Positions 43,076-49,220 of a stretch of DNA of 64,000 nucleotides are shown here, in pieces. The stretch's first letter is position 1; every line of letters begins with the position of its first letter. Location of the stretch: the NCBI GenBank assembly GCA_902800395.1, contig CADCEC010000009.1, positions 10,488 to 74,487 on the forward strand, given 5' to 3'. The notes below the pieces were generated by a model. It was not told the origin of the DNA. It saw only the letters and a program-made list of their open reading frames with translations, and did no database searches. Source of the stretch: an uncultured Bacteroidota bacterium (GTDB taxonomy: Bacteria; Bacteroidota; Bacteroidia; Bacteroidales; P3). The translations under genes were made by a program, and so were the position numbers.

Positions 43076-43624
43076 TTATTGTCCAGGATCCTGTAACGGA
43101 GTAGCGATGATATAGATGCCGATTTCGATACGAAATTCTTGGTCGAAGATGTCGCGCCGAATAATACGGTAGTGTGGGTCGTAGGCAGCTTTAAAGGCGG
43201 AACTATGAGTCATAACGAACTTGGAGTCAGGCGTGGGGAGGCCTTCCGTGCTTCGGAGGAGGGCGGAAACAAGTTTGTCGAGCGGGATGACGCCGCGCTT
43301 GACGAGGAGAAGGTTGACACGGACGAAGTTGCTGTCGCACAGCGTATATTCATAGAGGGGGAAGGGACCGTCGTTGATATCGCGGATGTCCTCTGGATAG
43401 GTGTCTTTCATCTCGGCGACCTCCTTGGAAATGTAGCGCACGGCGGCGAGAGAGTCGGTGAGCAGATGTCCGGGACCGTAGAGGTCTTGGAATACAAGTT
43501 TGTAGAGGTCTTGCGACTCGGCTGCGGGATAGCGCTCAGCATATTTTATCAAGGCCTCGTTACAAGGGATTTGTGCTGTTGCAATCATGGGCAGCAGTGC
43601 TATCAAAAGGAGATGCTTTTTCAT
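43076..43624 (-). CDS. Hypothetical secreted protein, translationally coupled to tatC
   Basis: Signal peptide MKKHLLLIALLPMIATAQ. Its start overlaps the tatC stop (ATGA). No family recognised. Confidence 0.55.
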   Translation of the reverse strand: MKKHLLLIALLPMIATAQIPCNEALIKYAERYPAAESQDLYKLVFQDLYGPGHLLTDSLAAVRYISKEVAEMKDTYPEDIRDINDGPFPLYEYTLCDSNFVRVNLLLVKRGVIPLDKLVSALLRSTEGLPTPDSKFVMTHSSAFKAAYDPHYRIIRRDIFDQEFRIEIGIYIIATPLQDPGQ

Positions 43625-44313
43625 TTTTCTACCTTTTTGACAATCAATATGCTGAGTTCCCAAAGGAGGTAAATCGGGATGGAGACGAGGGTGAGGGTGA
43701 AGGGGTCACCTGTGGGAGTGATAATGGCACCGACAATAAGGATAACGACGATGACGTGGCGACGGTATTTCCGCATGAAGGCGCTCTTGAGAATACCGAA
43801 TTTTCCTAACAACCAACAAAGTACAGGAAGTTCAAAGACGGCGCCCATCACCAGTGTCATAGTGACCAGCAACCCTATGTAGGAGGAAAGAGAAATTTGG
43901 TTAGGGACTTCCGGGGAAACCTGATAGGTACCGAGAAACTGGACAGTGAAAGGAAAGATAATGAAATAGTTGAGCAACACTCCTGCTAGGAAGAGTAGGT
44001 ATCCCCCACCGGCAGCGCGGATGGCCATGCGGCGTTCAAGTTCATAAAGTCCCGGAGCAACAAAGGCGAAGAGCTGGTAGATGAGATAGGGCGAGACGAC
44101 AATGATACCCATCCATAGGGCCACGCGCATGTGGGTAAAGAACTGCTGCGTGATTTCGATATTGATAAGCGAGATATTGTCGCCCTTGGGGGCGAGGATA
44201 ATGGCGAAGAGGGGCTCCTTGAAGCAGAAACAGGTCACCGCAGCGATAAGCGCGGCGACCAGCATGCGCCACAGCCGTGAGCGCAACTCGTCGAGATGCT
44301 CCCAGAAGGTCAT
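43621..44313 (-). CDS. tatC: Twin-arginine translocase subunit TatC
   Basis: MTFWEHLDELRSRL and a six-TM profile. Confidence 0.9.
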   Translation of the reverse strand: MTFWEHLDELRSRLWRMLVAALIAAVTCFCFKEPLFAIILAPKGDNISLINIEITQQFFTHMRVALWMGIIVVSPYLIYQLFAFVAPGLYELERRMAIRAAGGGYLLFLAGVLLNYFIIFPFTVQFLGTYQVSPEVPNQISLSSYIGLLVTMTLVMGAVFELPVLCWLLGKFGILKSAFMRKYRRHVIVVILIVGAIITPTGDPFTLTLVSIPIYLLWELSILIVKKVEK

Positions 44314-44317
44314 ACAA

Positions 44318-44400
44318 GTGGAAAACGGAAAGTGGAAAGTGGAAAGTTATTTGGCGTCAGCATCGTTTTCCACTTTACTCTTTCCACTTTCATCTTCCAC
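44318..44400. repeat. Inverted pair of (GGAAAGT)n blocks bracketing the tatA stop codon
   Basis: gtggaaaacggaaagtggaaagtggaaagt (44318-44347) versus ttttccactttactctttccactttcatcttccac (44366-44400). Confidence 0.85.
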
Positions 44401-44541
44401 ACCGTTCATTCCGTCCTTGAAGCTCTTGACGCCTTTGCCCACGCCGTGCATGAGTTCAGGGATTTTCTTGCCGCCGAAGAGCAGCAGGACGACAAGGACG
44501 ATGACGATAATTTCCCAGGTTCCTAACATTAACAGTTTCAT
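44347..44541 (-). CDS. tatA: Twin-arginine translocase subunit TatA/E
   Basis: TM helix followed by [19 protein letters not shown]. The C-terminal tail is repeat-derived. Confidence 0.9.
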
Positions 44542-45953
44542 ACCATTGAGTCTTTTAGTTGTTCGACGTAATCTTCAATCATGTGCAGCTTGGTGGGGAT
44601 GTCGATATGCTGCGGACAGTGCGTCACGCATTTCTTGCACTCGATGCAACGGTCAGCCTGACGGAGGCGCTCGATTTCGTTGTACGAGGTGAGGAATGCG
44701 CGACGGGCGCGACGGAATTCACGCTGCTCGACGGTACCCTCGGTCAACACCAGATCCTCGTTGAGGCACTTGTTGTAGTGTGCAAAGATGCCAGGGATGT
44801 TGATATCCATGGGACAGATGAGCTCGTTGGGGCCACAGTCTTCGAGGCAGTAGTTACAGCCGGTGCAGGGGATAGCGGGATGGTGTGCAAACTCGTCGGC
44901 CACACGCTCAAGGAGCGCCAGTTCGTCGTCGGCGAGGGGCTCGATAGGTGCGTGAGTACGCACGTTGTCCTCCAGGTGCTCCATGCGGTTCATGCCGCTG
45001 AGAGAAGTCAAAACGCGGGGATACATGCCGATATAGCGGAACGACCAGGAAGCGAGGCTGCGTTCGGGCTCACGCTCCTTGAGGAGACGTGCCATGTGGT
45101 CATTGAGCATACCCAGACGTCCACCCAAAAGAGGCTCCATGATAACAGCCGGTATCTCTTTGGCATCAAGTACATTGTAGAGATATTCCGCATTAACATT
45201 CTCTGGTTCTATCTCGTGGGCATAGTGCCAGTCGACATAATTCATCTGTATTTGCGCGAAATCCCAATGGTACTTGTCGTGCATAGCGACGACCTTGTCG
45301 AACTCCGACTGCTCGCCGTGGAACGACCATCCGAGGTTGCGGATACGTCCAGATTCTCGCTCCTTGAGGAGGAAATCGAGAACACCATTGTTGAGGAAAC
45401 GTTTCTCAAAGTCGCTCTCGCCGGTTTCCTCATCCACACCGCCGAAGGAGTGGAGCAAATAATAGTCAATGTGGTCGACCTGCAGATACTCGAACGACTT
45501 GTGGTACATCTCAATGCTAGCCTCATAGGAAGCATCCTTGAAGTTTGACATCTTGGTAGCCACGAGCCATTTGTCGCGCGGATGGCGACTGAGGGCGATG
45601 CCAGTAGCGGTCTCCGATTTGCCACGAAGATAAACCGGAGCGGTGTCGAAGTAGTTGACACCGTGTTCGATGGCATAGTCGACCATCTGGTTAATGGCTT
45701 CCTGGTCGAGGTCGGCATCGGGATTGTCGCGCAGCGAGACACCGCCCTCGACAGGGAGGCGCATCATGCCGAAGCCTAGGAGGGAAACCTTTTGGCCGTG
45801 GGCATCGGTGCGGTAGGTCATCTTGTCGGTGGGCACAGGGCCTACGGCATAGCCTTCGGCTTTGGCAGCCTGTGGATTGTCACAGCCAGCTGCAACAGCG
45901 GCACCGGCGACGACAGCACCAGAGAGACCTTTGAGGAATTGTCTTCTGTCCAT
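44538..45953 (-). CDS. Tat-signal aldo/keto reductase with a C-terminal 4Fe-4S domain
   Basis: [23 protein letters not shown] twin-arginine signal, an AKR core, and Cys clusters [11 protein letters not shown] and [12 protein letters not shown]. Its stop overlaps the tatA start. Confidence 0.8.
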
Positions 45954-46021: not shown

Positions 46022-46981
46022 TTATCGCTTGTCGACGATTTCCTTGCGGGCCTTGTGCTTGCGGCCGGAGTGCCAGAAGCCGTAGACCTCGCTGACATTG
46101 CCAGCGGTGGAGAAGGCCTCAATCTTCTCTTCCTTCATCCATGACAGTATCTTGCTGAACTCGTCCTTACTGAGCAGCACCTCGAGCTCGATGGACTTCT
46201 CGCCGCTATAGCCACCGGTAACCTCGTAAAGGGTGCAGCCACGATGGAGCTCATCAATGATATATTTGCGGATGCGCTCGTAATCTTTCGAAACAATGCA
46301 GAGTTTCTTGTGGTTGTTGAGGGTGGCGGTGAAGTAGTCGACCACGAGACCGTTAATCCAAGTACCGATGAGGCCGATAACCACCATACGGAAGTCATTG
46401 ATGAAGAAGGCCGTGCAGCAGATAACGGCGCCGGCAATGGAGACGGAGGCACCGATGTCGAAGTGGAGGAACTTGTTGACAATCTTGGCCAGGATGTCGA
46501 GACCACCAGTGGAAGCGTTGATGCTGAACATCAGGGCCTGGGCGGCGCTGAGCAGCAGCACAAAGCAGCAGAGGTCGAGCCAGGGGTCGCCCATGACGGA
46601 GGGCGAGTGGGTGGTCATGTTCTCAACGGCGATGTTGCTCCAAGGATAAACGGCATCCCAGAAGTCGGTCAAGGGACCAAGGATGAGGGCGGTGTAGACC
46701 GTCTTAAATCCGAACTCACGGTCAATGAGGATGAAAGCCATGATCAACAGGAAGATGTTGATGCAGGTAATCCAGGTGCCCAAGTTGCCACCGAAGATGT
46801 TGGAGAGCACGATGGAGAGACCGGAGATGGTGCCGATGATAAGCTTGGAGGGCACAAGAAAGTAGTAGACAGCAGCGGCAGTAACCATCATGCCGAGGGT
46901 CATGATGACCAGTTCTTTCCAGAACTTGAAGGTTTTCACGTAGGCGACAGCCTCGTTGATTTTTTCAGAGAATTTACTCAT
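46022..46981 (-). CDS. YitT family membrane protein (DUF2179)
   Basis: Polytopic N-terminal part and a C-terminal TLYEVTGGYSG domain. Confidence 0.8.
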   Translation of the reverse strand: MSKFSEKINEAVAYVKTFKFWKELVIMTLGMMVTAAAVYYFLVPSKLIIGTISGLSIVLSNIFGGNLGTWITCINIFLLIMAFILIDREFGFKTVYTALILGPLTDFWDAVYPWSNIAVENMTTHSPSVMGDPWLDLCCFVLLLSAAQALMFSINASTGGLDILAKIVNKFLHFDIGASVSIAGAVICCTAFFINDFRMVVIGLIGTWINGLVVDYFTATLNNHKKLCIVSKDYERIRKYIIDELHRGCTLYEVTGGYSGEKSIELEVLLSKDEFSKILSWMKEEKIEAFSTAGNVSEVYGFWHSGRKHKARKEIVDKR

Positions 46982-46995
46982 TGCTAGTGTATTTT

Positions 46996-47025
46996 TAACT
47001 ATTATCGATTATCTGTTAACTAATT
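46996..47025. repeat. TATCTATTAACTAT-type repeat (degenerate) between the polyferredoxin stop and the yitT start
   Basis: taactattatcgattatctgttaactaatt. Confidence 0.7.
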
Positions 47026-48370
47026 AAATCACAGCATGTATTTCGCGGCCTTCGACGTAGATGGCCTTGGTGGGCGTCGCGGGACAGTAGTATTCACACT
47101 TGCCGCAGCCGATGCACTTGTTTTCATGGACGGCGGGGATGCCGTCGACCATCTGGATGGCTTGAGCGGGGCAATGACGCTCGCAGAGGCCACAACCGAT
47201 GCAGTTGTCCTTGAGGACCACGGCATAGCCGATGCTGATGGTGGTCTTCTCGTCCTTGCTCACAGGCTGAATAGCGCCCGAGGGACAGAGCTCGCTGCAG
47301 CGAGTGCAGGCAAGTCGGCAGAAACCCTGATCGAAAGCCATAACGGGCTGCAGGAATCCGTCGAGGCCGGTGGAAGGACGCAACACATGCTCGGGACATT
47401 TTCCAACACAAAGCTGGCAGGCGGTGCAGCGGCTCAAAAAGTTCTTAAGGCTGATGGCGCCAGCAGGTTTCAGAGGGGTTTGGCGCTCGGGGATGGCCTT
47501 GTTTTCAACGAGAGCCATGCCTGCGGCGGCTTTCTCCTCCTGGGCATGGAGGACAGAGGCAGTGCCTACAGCAGCTGTGACGGCAAGGAATTTGCGACGG
47601 GAGGGATCAACAGTGCTAGATTCTCTAGAATTTCTAGAAATTGTTATTGCACCTTGTTTGCAGTGTCCGAGACAGTTGAAACACATCACACAGCGGCTGC
47701 CGTCGACCGTCTTGTCCTCAAGATTGATGCAGTTGGCTTTGCAGCGCTTCTCGCACTTGCGACAGCCGACGCACTTCTCGCGGTCAATGCGGATACCAAA
47801 GAGTGAGTGCTTGCTGAAGAGGCTCAGCAGGGAACCTACGGGACAGAGGGTGTTGCACCAAAGGCGACCGTACATGAAACTCATCACGCCAACGCAACAG
47901 AGTGTAGCGATGGCCACCCAGTGTACCAGACCACTGCCGTGGATATTAGCCACCATACGGGCGTAGGCACTGTAGGGGGCCACCAAGGAGGCTATTCCGT
48001 TCAGTCCAAAGAACATCAGTATAACAAAGAGTGCCAACACGATATAGCGCAGCCAGTTCTGTGGCTTACGGTAACGGTAGGGACGCTTCTTGCCAAAAAT
48101 AATTTTGTGGAACCAGCTGAATATGTCCTGAAAGATACCCATGGGGCATACCACAGAGCAGTAGAGTCGGCCAATGAGGGATGTTACCAGCAAGATGGCC
48201 ACCACGACCACCACATTGAGCGCAAGGATGGCCGGCAACAATTGCACTTTAGGCATCCATCCCAACCAGTGTCGCAACACAGCGCCGTCGGTAAAATCGA
48301 ATATCAGTGCCGTAATGCCGAAAAGCATCAGCGCGGCCAGAACGATTCGGATAACTTTTAAACTTTTCAT
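47024..48370 (-). CDS. Membrane polyferredoxin: NapH/MauN-like half fused to a NapG/MauM-like half
   Basis: TM helices with CSVVCPMG and CNTLCPVG, plus two 4Fe-4S motifs. Then the internal sequence SRRKFLAVTAAVGTASVLHA. Then four more CxxCxxCxxxCP motifs. Confidence 0.75.
   Translation of the reverse strand: MKSLKVIRIVLAALMLFGITALIFDFTDGAVLRHWLGWMPKVQLLPAILALNVVVVVAILLVTSLIGRLYCSVVCPMGIFQDIFSWFHKIIFGKKRPYRYRKPQNWLRYIVLALFVILMFFGLNGIASLVAPYSAYARMVANIHGSGLVHWVAIATLCCVGVMSFMYGRLWCNTLCPVGSLLSLFSKHSLFGIRIDREKCVGCRKCEKRCKANCINLEDKTVDGSRCVMCFNCLGHCKQGAITISRNSRESSTVDPSRRKFLAVTAAVGTASVLHAQEEKAAAGMALVENKAIPERQTPLKPAGAISLKNFLSRCTACQLCVGKCPEHVLRPSTGLDGFLQPVMAFDQGFCRLACTRCSELCPSGAIQPVSKDEKTTISIGYAVVLKDNCIGCGLCERHCPAQAIQMVDGIPAVHENKCIGCGKCEYYCPATPTKAIYVEGREIHAVI
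47615..47642. repeat. (TCTAGAAWT)-type repeat, in frame in the polyferredoxin (ISRNSRES)
   Basis: gctagattctctagaatttctagaaatt. It lies directly upstream (in the protein) of the internal RRKFL motif. Confidence 0.65.
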
Positions 48371-48382
48371 GGATTTAATGGG

Positions 48383-49189
48383 CTATTTGTTTTTCAGCAT
48401 AGCGTAAACGGCGAGGCCGGCGACAGATTTGATGCCGGTTTTGCGGGTGATGCTTTTACGATGGGTATTAACAGTATTAACCGCGATATTGAGGCGGGCG
48501 GCAATTTCCTTGCTGCTGAGGCCCTGGGCCACCAGCTCGAGGACATCCATCTCGCGTTCGCTGAGGTTGTAATCCTCCTGCGGCTGAAGCAGCAGCTCCT
48601 CAATCATGGCATGCTTCTCGAGATCGCGGCTGAGCTGCAGGATGTCGAAAACCAGCTCCATCATTTCCTCGGTGAGGCGTTCGCCCGGCAGGTACTTGTA
48701 GATAATCTGGGTGAGGTCGCTAAGTTTGTCGCGGATGTTGTCGTGACTTTTGAGATAGTGCTCGTTAACAGTCGGGGTTCCCTCCAGCATCTGAGTGAGG
48801 TTCTTCTCTTCGCGGCGTACATGCTCGCGCACCTCACGGCAGTAGTCAGCATAGTATTTGCGGAGAATCTCGCCGCTATGGCCAGCGTTCTCGGTGATAT
48901 GGTCGAGGTGGTGCTGTAGGTGCGGAAGGCGCTCCTCAAGGTAGTAGCGGTGCGAGGCACGGAGGTGCTCGGCCACAAGGCGGTTGTCGATGCGCGACGA
49001 CTCCTCGTCGTCTGGACGATAGTCGTCAAAAGTGTAGATATTGCATACCGTAAGGAAGAAATGGTCGTCGACATTATTGTCGCGGCAGACCTCTTTGACG
49101 GTCTTTTCGCCAAATCCCAGAGGAATGCCAAACCTAGGCAGCATAAGGATTAAGTCGTAGTTCGACGCAATCATGTCTGCCATCTTCAT
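48383..49189 (-). CDS. LuxR-type HTH transcriptional regulator with a His/Glu-rich helical N-terminal domain
   Basis: C-terminal LSEREMDVLELVAQGLSSKEIAARLNIAVNTVNTHR. I prefer the ATG at 49189 because the track start at 49216 is 5 nt from the -7 box. Confidence 0.75.
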   Translation of the reverse strand: MKMADMIASNYDLILMLPRFGIPLGFGEKTVKEVCRDNNVDDHFFLTVCNIYTFDDYRPDDEESSRIDNRLVAEHLRASHRYYLEERLPHLQHHLDHITENAGHSGEILRKYYADYCREVREHVRREEKNLTQMLEGTPTVNEHYLKSHDNIRDKLSDLTQIIYKYLPGERLTEEMMELVFDILQLSRDLEKHAMIEELLLQPQEDYNLSEREMDVLELVAQGLSSKEIAARLNIAVNTVNTHRKSITRKTGIKSVAGLAVYAMLKNK

Positions 49190-49220
49190 ACGGCCAGTAA
49201 ACAGGGTCCGATTCATGCGG

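Follow-up and report, generated by a model that had tools for sequence, protein, structure and literature searches.

Introduction

How is a protein placed in the membrane when its twin-arginine export signal lies in the middle of the chain? This question is raised by a polyferredoxin gene in a stretch of 64,000 nucleotides (hereafter the window) from an uncultured bacterium of the order Bacteroidales (GenBank assembly GCA_902800395.1, contig CADCEC010000009.1, positions 10,488 to 74,487). The gene is a single open reading frame (ORF) at 47024-48370 on the minus strand, as seen both in the ORF list and in the DNA itself. Its 448-residue product joins a NapH-like half to a NapG-like half, with a segment resembling a twin-arginine translocation (Tat) signal between them. 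An earlier reading of the same sequence (the original prediction) suggested that two adjacent genes had recently become fused through loss of a stop codon at a mini repeat, so that the signal of the second gene came to lie inside the product. We propose, with a probability of roughly 80%, that this Bacteroidales NapH-NapG polyferredoxin is inserted by the general secretory (Sec) and Tat pathways acting together, and that it serves as a link between the quinone pool and a periplasmic partner.

Domain architecture and relation to known polyferredoxins

All elements listed in the original prediction, namely the ORF, the helices, the CX3CP motifs, the 4Fe-4S motifs and the Tat segment, are present (Table 1). 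A Pfam search finds two Fer4_5 (NapH-type) stretches and many ferredoxin-type matches, and the reading of the two halves as NapH-like and NapG-like is borne out by hidden Markov models. NCBIfam NapH models match residues 47-250 with an E-value of about 1e-23, and model positions 4-206 of the NapG model NF007012 are aligned to residues 251-440. Since this alignment starts at model position 4 and residue 251, the NapG match begins at the Tat-signal region. All scores fall well short of the curated cut-offs: NapH (NF007013 / TIGR02163) obtains 84 bits vs 234 and 213, and NapG (NF007012 / TIGR00397) obtains 57 vs 269 and 45 vs 179 bits. All Cys residues of the four NapG-like 4Fe-4S motifs are invariant in an alignment of 40 sequences. 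Structural comparison is less specific. The NapH-like half has a single PDB match at E <= 0.001, to a ferredoxin motif (residues 193-243), and the C-terminal half has generic ferredoxin or polyferredoxin matches only (MvhB, FwdF, RnfB). Foldseek, run with an AlphaFold2 (AF2) model of moderate quality (predicted local distance difference test, pLDDT, 72.8), returned nothing better than the PDB sequence matches, with TM-scores below 0.2.

An architecture of this kind has been described before. Tooke et al. (2017, eLife 6:e26577, PMC5449189) screened all genomes for proteins in which helices, even in number, precede an RR motif and a single final helix. The screen yielded a family of polytopic polyferredoxins, exemplified by Q1NSB0 of the delta proteobacterium MLMS-1. 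They termed the MLMS-1 polyferredoxin a NapH-NapG fusion, discussed its origin from adjacent genes and demonstrated that export of MBP and AmiA by its membrane part depends on Tat and on RR (PMC5449189). In a BLASTP comparison with residues 1-364 of the MLMS-1 protein, taken from the supplement of that paper, the window protein is collinear with residues 82-349 at 23% identity (E = 2e-6), and the CX3CP motifs, the Cys clusters and the RR pair are all aligned. The two proteins share a NapH-like part with several transmembrane (TM) helices, two CX3CP motifs, Fe-S motifs assigned to the cytoplasm and a C-terminal NapG-like domain with four clusters. In the window protein, the shorter of the two, RR lies at residue 258, whereas the fifth TM segment of the MLMS-1 protein lies at 338-359. 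The window protein further differs in having acidic residues and one Lys after the last helix, a conserved A|Q site of the signal peptidase type, a conserved Tat-lipoprotein reductase as a neighbour and, in the window clade, an operon shared with tatAC. The phyla named for the polytopic polyferredoxin family do not include Bacteroidetes (PMC5449189). Judged by the alignment, it belongs to the known NapH-NapG polyferredoxin family as a Bacteroidales member that is shorter than the MLMS-1 protein and only distantly related to it. The central idea of the original prediction is therefore right, but it had already been published in 2017, when such a fusion was described with an internal Tat signal.

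Two further groups of proteins are worth comparing. NapH and NapG of Escherichia coli and Wolinella succinogenes, like MauN and MauM, have the same two domain types, with the order as in the napG and napH gene products. The predicted sidedness also agrees: the NapH-like clusters would be cytoplasmic and the NapG-like part Tat-exported. The window protein differs from them in being one polypeptide instead of two and in its low scores with the corresponding models. The original prediction had also drawn an analogy with actinobacterial Rieske proteins. The same analogy is drawn in PMC5449189, where the matching architecture was shown experimentally to be dually targeted by Sec and Tat. In the Rieske proteins (Sco2149, Mycobacterium tuberculosis QcrA) and in the haem and molybdenum cofactor protein Sco3746, Sec likewise inserts the first helices, and an internal RR with a weakly hydrophobic last helix passes a folded domain with its cofactor on to Tat; the proteins and their cofactors are unrelated to the polyferredoxin, and they have a different number of helices.

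Conservation of the internal Tat-type signal and its co-occurrence with TatC

The segment S257-A276 (SRRKFLAVTAAVGTASVLHA; nt 47543-47602) is followed by Q277. The 40-sequence alignment, in which identity falls as low as 47%, has R259 in every sequence, with R258 and F261 conserved to at least 90%. In an alignment of 19 homologues S-R-R-K-F, A276-Q277 and the fusion itself are invariant, and the linker varies in both length and sequence. For a broader set one genome per species was scanned, yielding 266 encoding loci. The 80 that were kept are all from Bacteroidales, mostly rumen or gut metagenome-assembled genomes (MAGs), and encode proteins of 43-80% identity; 85 loci were fetched and 79 orthologues were distinct. 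RR is kept in 71 of the 79. At about 45% identity, four orthologues (L060, L063, L071 and L074) have lost RR (LRAML, FRKTI) and kept the hydrophobic (h-) region and A-Q, and the reductase that adjoins each of them retains both its RR and its lipobox.

The distribution of the gene follows that of the Tat system. Among 301 evenly sampled Bacteroidales genomes, TatC was found in 141 of the 142 that carry the fusion, and the fusion was found in only 1 of 44 TatC-negative genomes (G165, whose copy is on a contig of 3.4 kb). By Fisher's exact test p is 1.5e-12, a value that overstates the support because related genomes are not independent. The window genome (2.4 Mb, 94.6% complete) has one TatC match, and it lies inside the polyferredoxin operon; tatA and tatC are, as originally noted, about 2.5 kb from the polyferredoxin gene, and they are on the same strand. 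When the genome was scanned in six frames for RR followed by an uncharged stretch rich in Ala, Gly, Ser or Thr, only two convincing Tat motifs emerged, those of an aldo/keto reductase and of the polyferredoxin. A third candidate was rejected, as it falls in a cytoplasmic loop of a multi-helix membrane protein resembling a transporter. In this 2.4-Mb genome the Tat system appears to be nearly dedicated to the polyferredoxin and the reductase. In short, conservation and TatC co-occurrence support an internal Tat signal: the RR conservation and the near-exclusive presence of the gene in TatC-positive genomes point to the middle segment as a genuine, selected Tat-type signal, as had been predicted.

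The probable redox partner

If the NapG-like domain is exported, which protein would it serve? NapG is known from Nap systems, whereas a NapA-like protein (TIGR01706, E <= 1e-5) was not found in the 94.6%-complete window genome and there are no nap genes among the neighbours of the polyferredoxin. The neighbours are, unlike those in Nap systems, a reductase-FeS lipoprotein, a YitT-family protein, a hemerythrin-LuxR regulator and tatAC. A homologue of the reductase, an aldo/keto reductase with a C-terminal Fe-S domain, is found in 80 of the 85 loci, adjoining the polyferredoxin gene or within about 2.5 kb of it on either side, and the pairing persists down to 43% polyferredoxin identity. RRxF(L/I/M/F) and a lipobox Cys are present in all distinct reductase copies (69/69). 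By inspection, the reductase retains the D-Y-K-H residues usual for aldo/keto reductases (FDTAPVY, ATK, LLHS). From the persistent pairing with a Tat-lipoprotein reductase, together with the lack of NapA, we infer a role for the polyferredoxin as the connection between the reductase and the membrane or cytoplasmic side. The redox partner of the polyferredoxin is most likely this adjacent Tat-exported lipoprotein, and not a nitrate reductase. A literature search on the pairing found nothing relevant, and the near-constant association with a Tat lipoprotein aldo/keto reductase-FeS, here in one operon with tatAC, appears to be new.

Topology and a proposed route of biogenesis

The NapH-like half has four strongly hydrophobic helices, that is, an even number ahead of the RR motif. 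Its N-terminus is probably cytoplasmic because K2, K5 and R8 lie there, and a K/R-rich loop at residues 67-108 carries the first CX3CP motif. This distribution of K and R fits the topology given for NapH, whose termini and clusters are cytoplasmic, with NapG being Tat-exported (PMC5449189). The termini of the half, both CX3CP motifs and the first two clusters are therefore predicted to be on the cytoplasmic side. The fifth stretch is much less hydrophobic: its best 19-residue window scores +10.5 vs -2.8 to +1.0 for TM1-4, and its 16-residue core gives about +2.9 when summed by hand, all of these being crude sums on a hydrophobicity scale and not the output of the published delta-G predictor. 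According to Tooke et al., it is a weakly hydrophobic last helix followed by positive charges that allows Sec to hand the chain over to Tat (PMC5449189).

What the sequences show directly is the architecture, its conservation, the co-occurrence with Tat and the gene neighbourhood. The mechanism that we infer, which covers topology, Tat dependence in this organism and the path and direction of the electrons, would run as follows. Sec would insert the four hydrophobic helices co-translationally, leaving the N-terminus, both CX3CP motifs and two [4Fe-4S] sites in the cytoplasm. Next would come a flexible linker of unconstrained length, in which in-frame mini repeats would be tolerated. S-R-R-K-F and the weakly hydrophobic 16-residue stretch after it would escape Sec, and the four-cluster NapG-like domain would fold and receive its clusters in the cytoplasm. 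Only then would TatAC, encoded in the same operon, recognise the segment and translocate the NapG-like domain to the periplasmic side. If NapGH is taken as a guide, the function would be to link the quinone pool to a periplasmic redox partner. The original prediction had also raised the possibility of a transmembrane electron conduit. In this topology the full thickness of the membrane would separate the two sets of clusters, and no cofactor-binding motif was seen inside the membrane helices of the polyferredoxin.

Another way to read the same features is that RR is unused, that the fifth stretch stays out of the membrane and that the protein is a membrane-anchored polyferredoxin with all six 4Fe-4S clusters in the cytoplasm. 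The stretch is indeed short (16 residues) and weakly hydrophobic, AF2 models it with low confidence, and a few orthologues do without RR. Such a protein would, however, hardly account for the conservation of RR and the co-occurrence with TatC, for a NapG model that aligns from its own signal region, or for the conserved partner reductase, which itself carries a Tat export signal; moreover, the homologous architecture was Tat-exported in experiments (PMC5449189). We consider an entirely cytoplasmic set of clusters highly unlikely.

Several observations do weigh against insertion by Sec and Tat as proposed here. The residues after the fifth stretch are Q-E-E-K, with K280 invariant among close relatives, and the usual forms in orthologues are EQK, EKK and ANKK (one or two Lys); one conserved Lys flanked by acids is a weaker fit to the positive-charge rule of Tooke et al. 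The low identity to the experimentally tested MLMS-1 protein has to be kept in mind, as does the fact that three cytoplasmic clusters are reported for the latter and two are found in the window protein. A clear RR is absent in 8 of the 79 orthologues (four with a single R, one with RK and three unscored by the pattern), and the partner reductase keeps its RR even beside such orthologues. The hydrophobicity sums are crude, as stated above. AF2 pLDDT is below 50 for residues 251-285, and the model is therefore silent on how the fifth helix sits, whether as an anchor or as a signal. Finally, aldo/keto reductases are normally NAD(P)H-dependent, and NAD(P)H should not be available in the periplasm. 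The proposed partnership does not explain how an enzyme of this class could be served by one-electron Fe-S centres.

Age of the fusion and the mini repeat

The original prediction had the fusion arise recently, in one lineage, from adjacent napH-like and napG-like genes, with the Tat signal as a leftover. What speaks for such a history is that NapH and NapG are widespread as separate proteins (PMC5449189), and that the linker is the least conserved part of the protein and holds a repeat of variable copy number. The distribution of the fused form tells otherwise. The best 120 homologues are full length (435-476 aa, query coverage 96-100%, identity 67-98%), and no internal stop is found in any of the 79 distinct Bacteroidales orthologues (43-80% identity). 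In the order-wide sample the fusion is present in 142 of 301 genomes and in 100 of 200 genera, in open frames of about 500 aa with the match spanning the linker; a stop falls inside 1 of the 150 matches listed. No split version was seen in the 85 loci and the order-wide sample, which were examined for stops and for separate genes. Two short open frames that looked like split copies are artefacts, one caused by a contig end (L087) and the other by a masked run of N (L088).

The fused form extends into a library of representatives at 50% identity, which gave 1070 clusters at E <= 1e-30. Among the best 150 examined, 146 representatives are full length, and 131 of the 146 have RR, KR or RK with an uncharged stretch between the halves. 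With the fusion present in roughly every second sampled Bacteroidales genus and in many clusters of 50% identity, with 79 of 79 orthologues uninterrupted and with RR under selection, a recent stop loss at the mini repeat can scarcely be maintained. As a result that would refute it, the original prediction had named an old, widespread single-gene family with an unconserved RR segment; the first half of this is what we find, whereas RR is conserved. The distribution of the fusion indicates that it is ancient and was not produced by the mini repeat.

The mini repeat itself is real but tiny (9 bp x 2.7). Its pattern, searched across the whole window, matches only itself, so a dispersed repeat was rejected. 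The closest relative (P0001, 98% identity) has one extra unit. Among orthologues the linker, measured from the last Cys motif to RR, ranges from 9 to 42 aa, and several loci (L042, L017, L001, L012 and L013) have other in-frame low-complexity repeats there, for example KDFKDLKDSKDLKDSKDLKD, NTQNTRNNQNTQST and GTSGTSGNPGNSG. Across the clade the linker is, by all appearances, a hot spot for short tandem repeats. Because it is poorly conserved and variable in length and because orthologues have repeats of other kinds, the repeat is best regarded as a tolerated length polymorphism of a tether and not as the scar of a fusion.

Some carriers have more than one polyferredoxin. A second paralogue of 486 aa and about 50% identity was seen in three loci (L053, L054 and L085), with no reductase, YitT or tat gene nearby; two of them (L053 and L054) have a regulator-like gene immediately downstream. 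L054 and L017 come from the same MAG, so some genomes hold two copies. No cultured carrier of the fusion was found among the cluster members looked up. TIGR02163 (NapH/MauN) matches Bacteroides thetaiotaomicron below its cut-off, in a protein not confirmed as a fusion, so that a relative of the polyferredoxin may exist in a species that is in culture and open to genetics.

A candidate cleavage site after the Tat signal

Does the fifth helix stay in the chain as an anchor, or is it cut? The sequence from Q277 onward is QEEKAAAGMALVENK, and L-H-A|Q fits the Q-rule pattern, with a small residue at -1, an aliphatic or small one at -3 and Gln at +1 after the h-region. In Bacteroidetes, substrates of signal peptidase I typically expose Gln, which is then cyclised (PMC5837995, PMC10653852). 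The window genome obeys the rule: [AGS]-Q follows the h-region in 47% of its signal-peptide-like N-termini vs 11% of controls. Of the 79 orthologues, 74 keep A-Q, over a range that extends to 43% identity, and the residue at -3 is L, V, A, I or M. Given the conserved A-Q and the Q-rule in the genome, the polyferredoxin may be cleaved in two.

Proceeding from this, it is tempting to refine the proposed Sec and Tat insertion by one step, in which signal peptidase I would cut between A276 and Q277 after Tat transport and free a soluble NapG-like protein. The products, in a 1:1 ratio, would be a NapH-like part retaining the signal as a fifth, C-terminal helix and a pyroglutamate-capped NapG-like protein with four clusters. 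Besides the Q-rule, this step would explain why A-Q is so well kept when column conservation of the h-region itself is only 0.56, and it would agree with an AF2 model that leaves the fifth helix unpacked against the bundle. The conservation of the h-region is close to that of TM4 (0.53) and therefore does not separate an anchor from a cleaved signal. Leu at the -3 position of signal peptidase sites is tolerated but not preferred, which counts against cleavage, and the conservation of Q277 and K280 could instead belong to the invariant DGGLA segment that follows. In addition, the Q-rule paper (PMC5837995) does not mention Tat substrates, and for Tooke et al. the fifth helix anchors the protein permanently, the release of their reporter having required the addition of an artificial peptidase site (PMC5449189). 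On balance we regard cleavage as a possible but tentative refinement, which we would not yet favour over an uncut protein.

If the cut takes place, there is an analogue. The cytochrome b/c1 precursor encoded by fbcH of Bradyrhizobium japonicum is cut at an internal signal-like sequence, so that there, too, one gene with an internal signal-like sequence gives two mature redox subunits. FbcH is Sec-type and its cofactor is haem, whereas the window protein is Tat-type with Fe-S clusters and its cleavage is hypothetical. A conserved A-Q after an internal Tat signal appears to be new. Going one step further, a Tat-dependent polyprotein cut at A|Q might form, with the Tat lipoprotein reductase, an undescribed periplasmic redox module that is nearly the sole client of Tat. 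This we hold to be rather unlikely, slightly more so than the cleavage itself.

The operon and its other genes

The polyferredoxin gene is the second of seven tightly packed minus-strand genes, which run from 49216 to 43076 in the order hemerythrin/RIC-like LuxR regulator, polyferredoxin, YitT/DUF2179, aldo/keto reductase-FeS, tatA, tatC and a small secreted protein. The first six recur in the same order in relatives with differing outer flanks. In the regulator, residues 36-211 form a RIC/ScdA-like di-iron hemerythrin domain (TIGR03652, E = 3e-6) and residues 217-272 a LuxR-type helix-turn-helix (HTH), a receiver domain being absent; the protein may be a candidate O2, NO or iron sensor for the operon. 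The last gene (43076-43624, minus strand), whose start overlaps the tatC stop, encodes 182 aa with a Sec-type signal ending in ATA|Q. No NCBIfam match was found for this protein, and it is not present after tatC in the relatives L001-L004.

Table 1. Positions in the window of the polyferredoxin gene, its segments and the neighbouring genes
Feature	Coordinates	Strand	Basis or remark
Whole ORF, fused NapH-like/NapG-like polyferredoxin	47024..48370	-	448 aa plus stop
TM1, residues 6-24	48299..48355	-	hydrophobicity scan; helix 2-24 in AF2 model
TM2, residues 48-66	48173..48229	-	hydrophobicity scan, AF2 model
First CX3CP motif, C71-P76, CSVVCP	48143..48160	-	C71, C75 and P76 invariant; in K/R-rich loop, predicted cytoplasmic
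TM3, residues 109-127	47990..48046	-	hydrophobicity scan, AF2 model
TM4, residues 148-166	47873..47929	-	hydrophobicity scan, AF2 model
Second CX3CP motif, C172-P177, CNTLCP	47840..47857	-	invariant in orthologue alignments
Two 4Fe-4S-type motifs, C200xxC203xxC206xxxC210 and C227xxC230xxC233xxxC237	47660..47773	-	eight Cys invariant (40-sequence alignment); predicted cytoplasmic
Variable linker, residues 242-256	47603..47647	-	least conserved segment, mean column identity 0.37
In-frame 9-bp tandem repeat, 2.7 copies, encodes SRNSRES	47616..47639		repeat detection
Twin-arginine motif S257-R-R-K-F-L262	47585..47602	-	directly precedes weakly hydrophobic stretch; aligned with MLMS-1 RR
Weakly hydrophobic Ala/Gly/Thr-rich h-region or fifth helix, F261-A276, ends L-H-A	47543..47590	-	hydrophobicity scan
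A276-Q277, candidate signal peptidase I site, Gln at +1	47540..47545	-	Bacteroidetes Q-rule
NapG-like domain, residues 278-448	47027..47539	-	four CxxCxxCxxxCP-type motifs; predicted periplasmic
NapG-like motifs C315-P326, C351-P363, C390-P401, C419-P430	47393-47428, 47282-47320, 47168-47203, 47081-47116	-	
Hemerythrin/RIC-like domain and LuxR-type HTH regulator	48383..49216	-	12 nt upstream of polyferredoxin start; kept in close relatives
YitT/DUF2179 membrane protein	46022..46981	-	between polyferredoxin and reductase; position kept in relatives, 50-80% identity
Aldo/keto reductase, C-terminal 4Fe-4S, Tat signal MDRRQFLKG, lipobox AAGC	44538..45953	-	proposed periplasmic partner
tatA	44347..44541	-	start overlaps reductase stop
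tatC	43621..44313	-	sole TatC match in genome

Implications

As the internal Tat signal of a NapH-NapG fusion was tested in 2017, our finding mainly confirms that this known design is common in rumen and gut Bacteroidales. The most noteworthy parts beyond the published design are the pairing with the reductase, the near-dedicated Tat system and the conserved A|Q. If A|Q is cut, this would be a natural case of one gene giving rise to a membrane subunit and a periplasmic subunit. A Tat system is seemingly kept almost only for two proteins in a genome of 2.4 Mb. The pairing suggests that abundant anaerobes of the gut and rumen carry out a periplasmic redox reaction not yet characterised, and it raises the question of how enzymes of a class normally dependent on NAD(P)H function beyond the cytoplasm.

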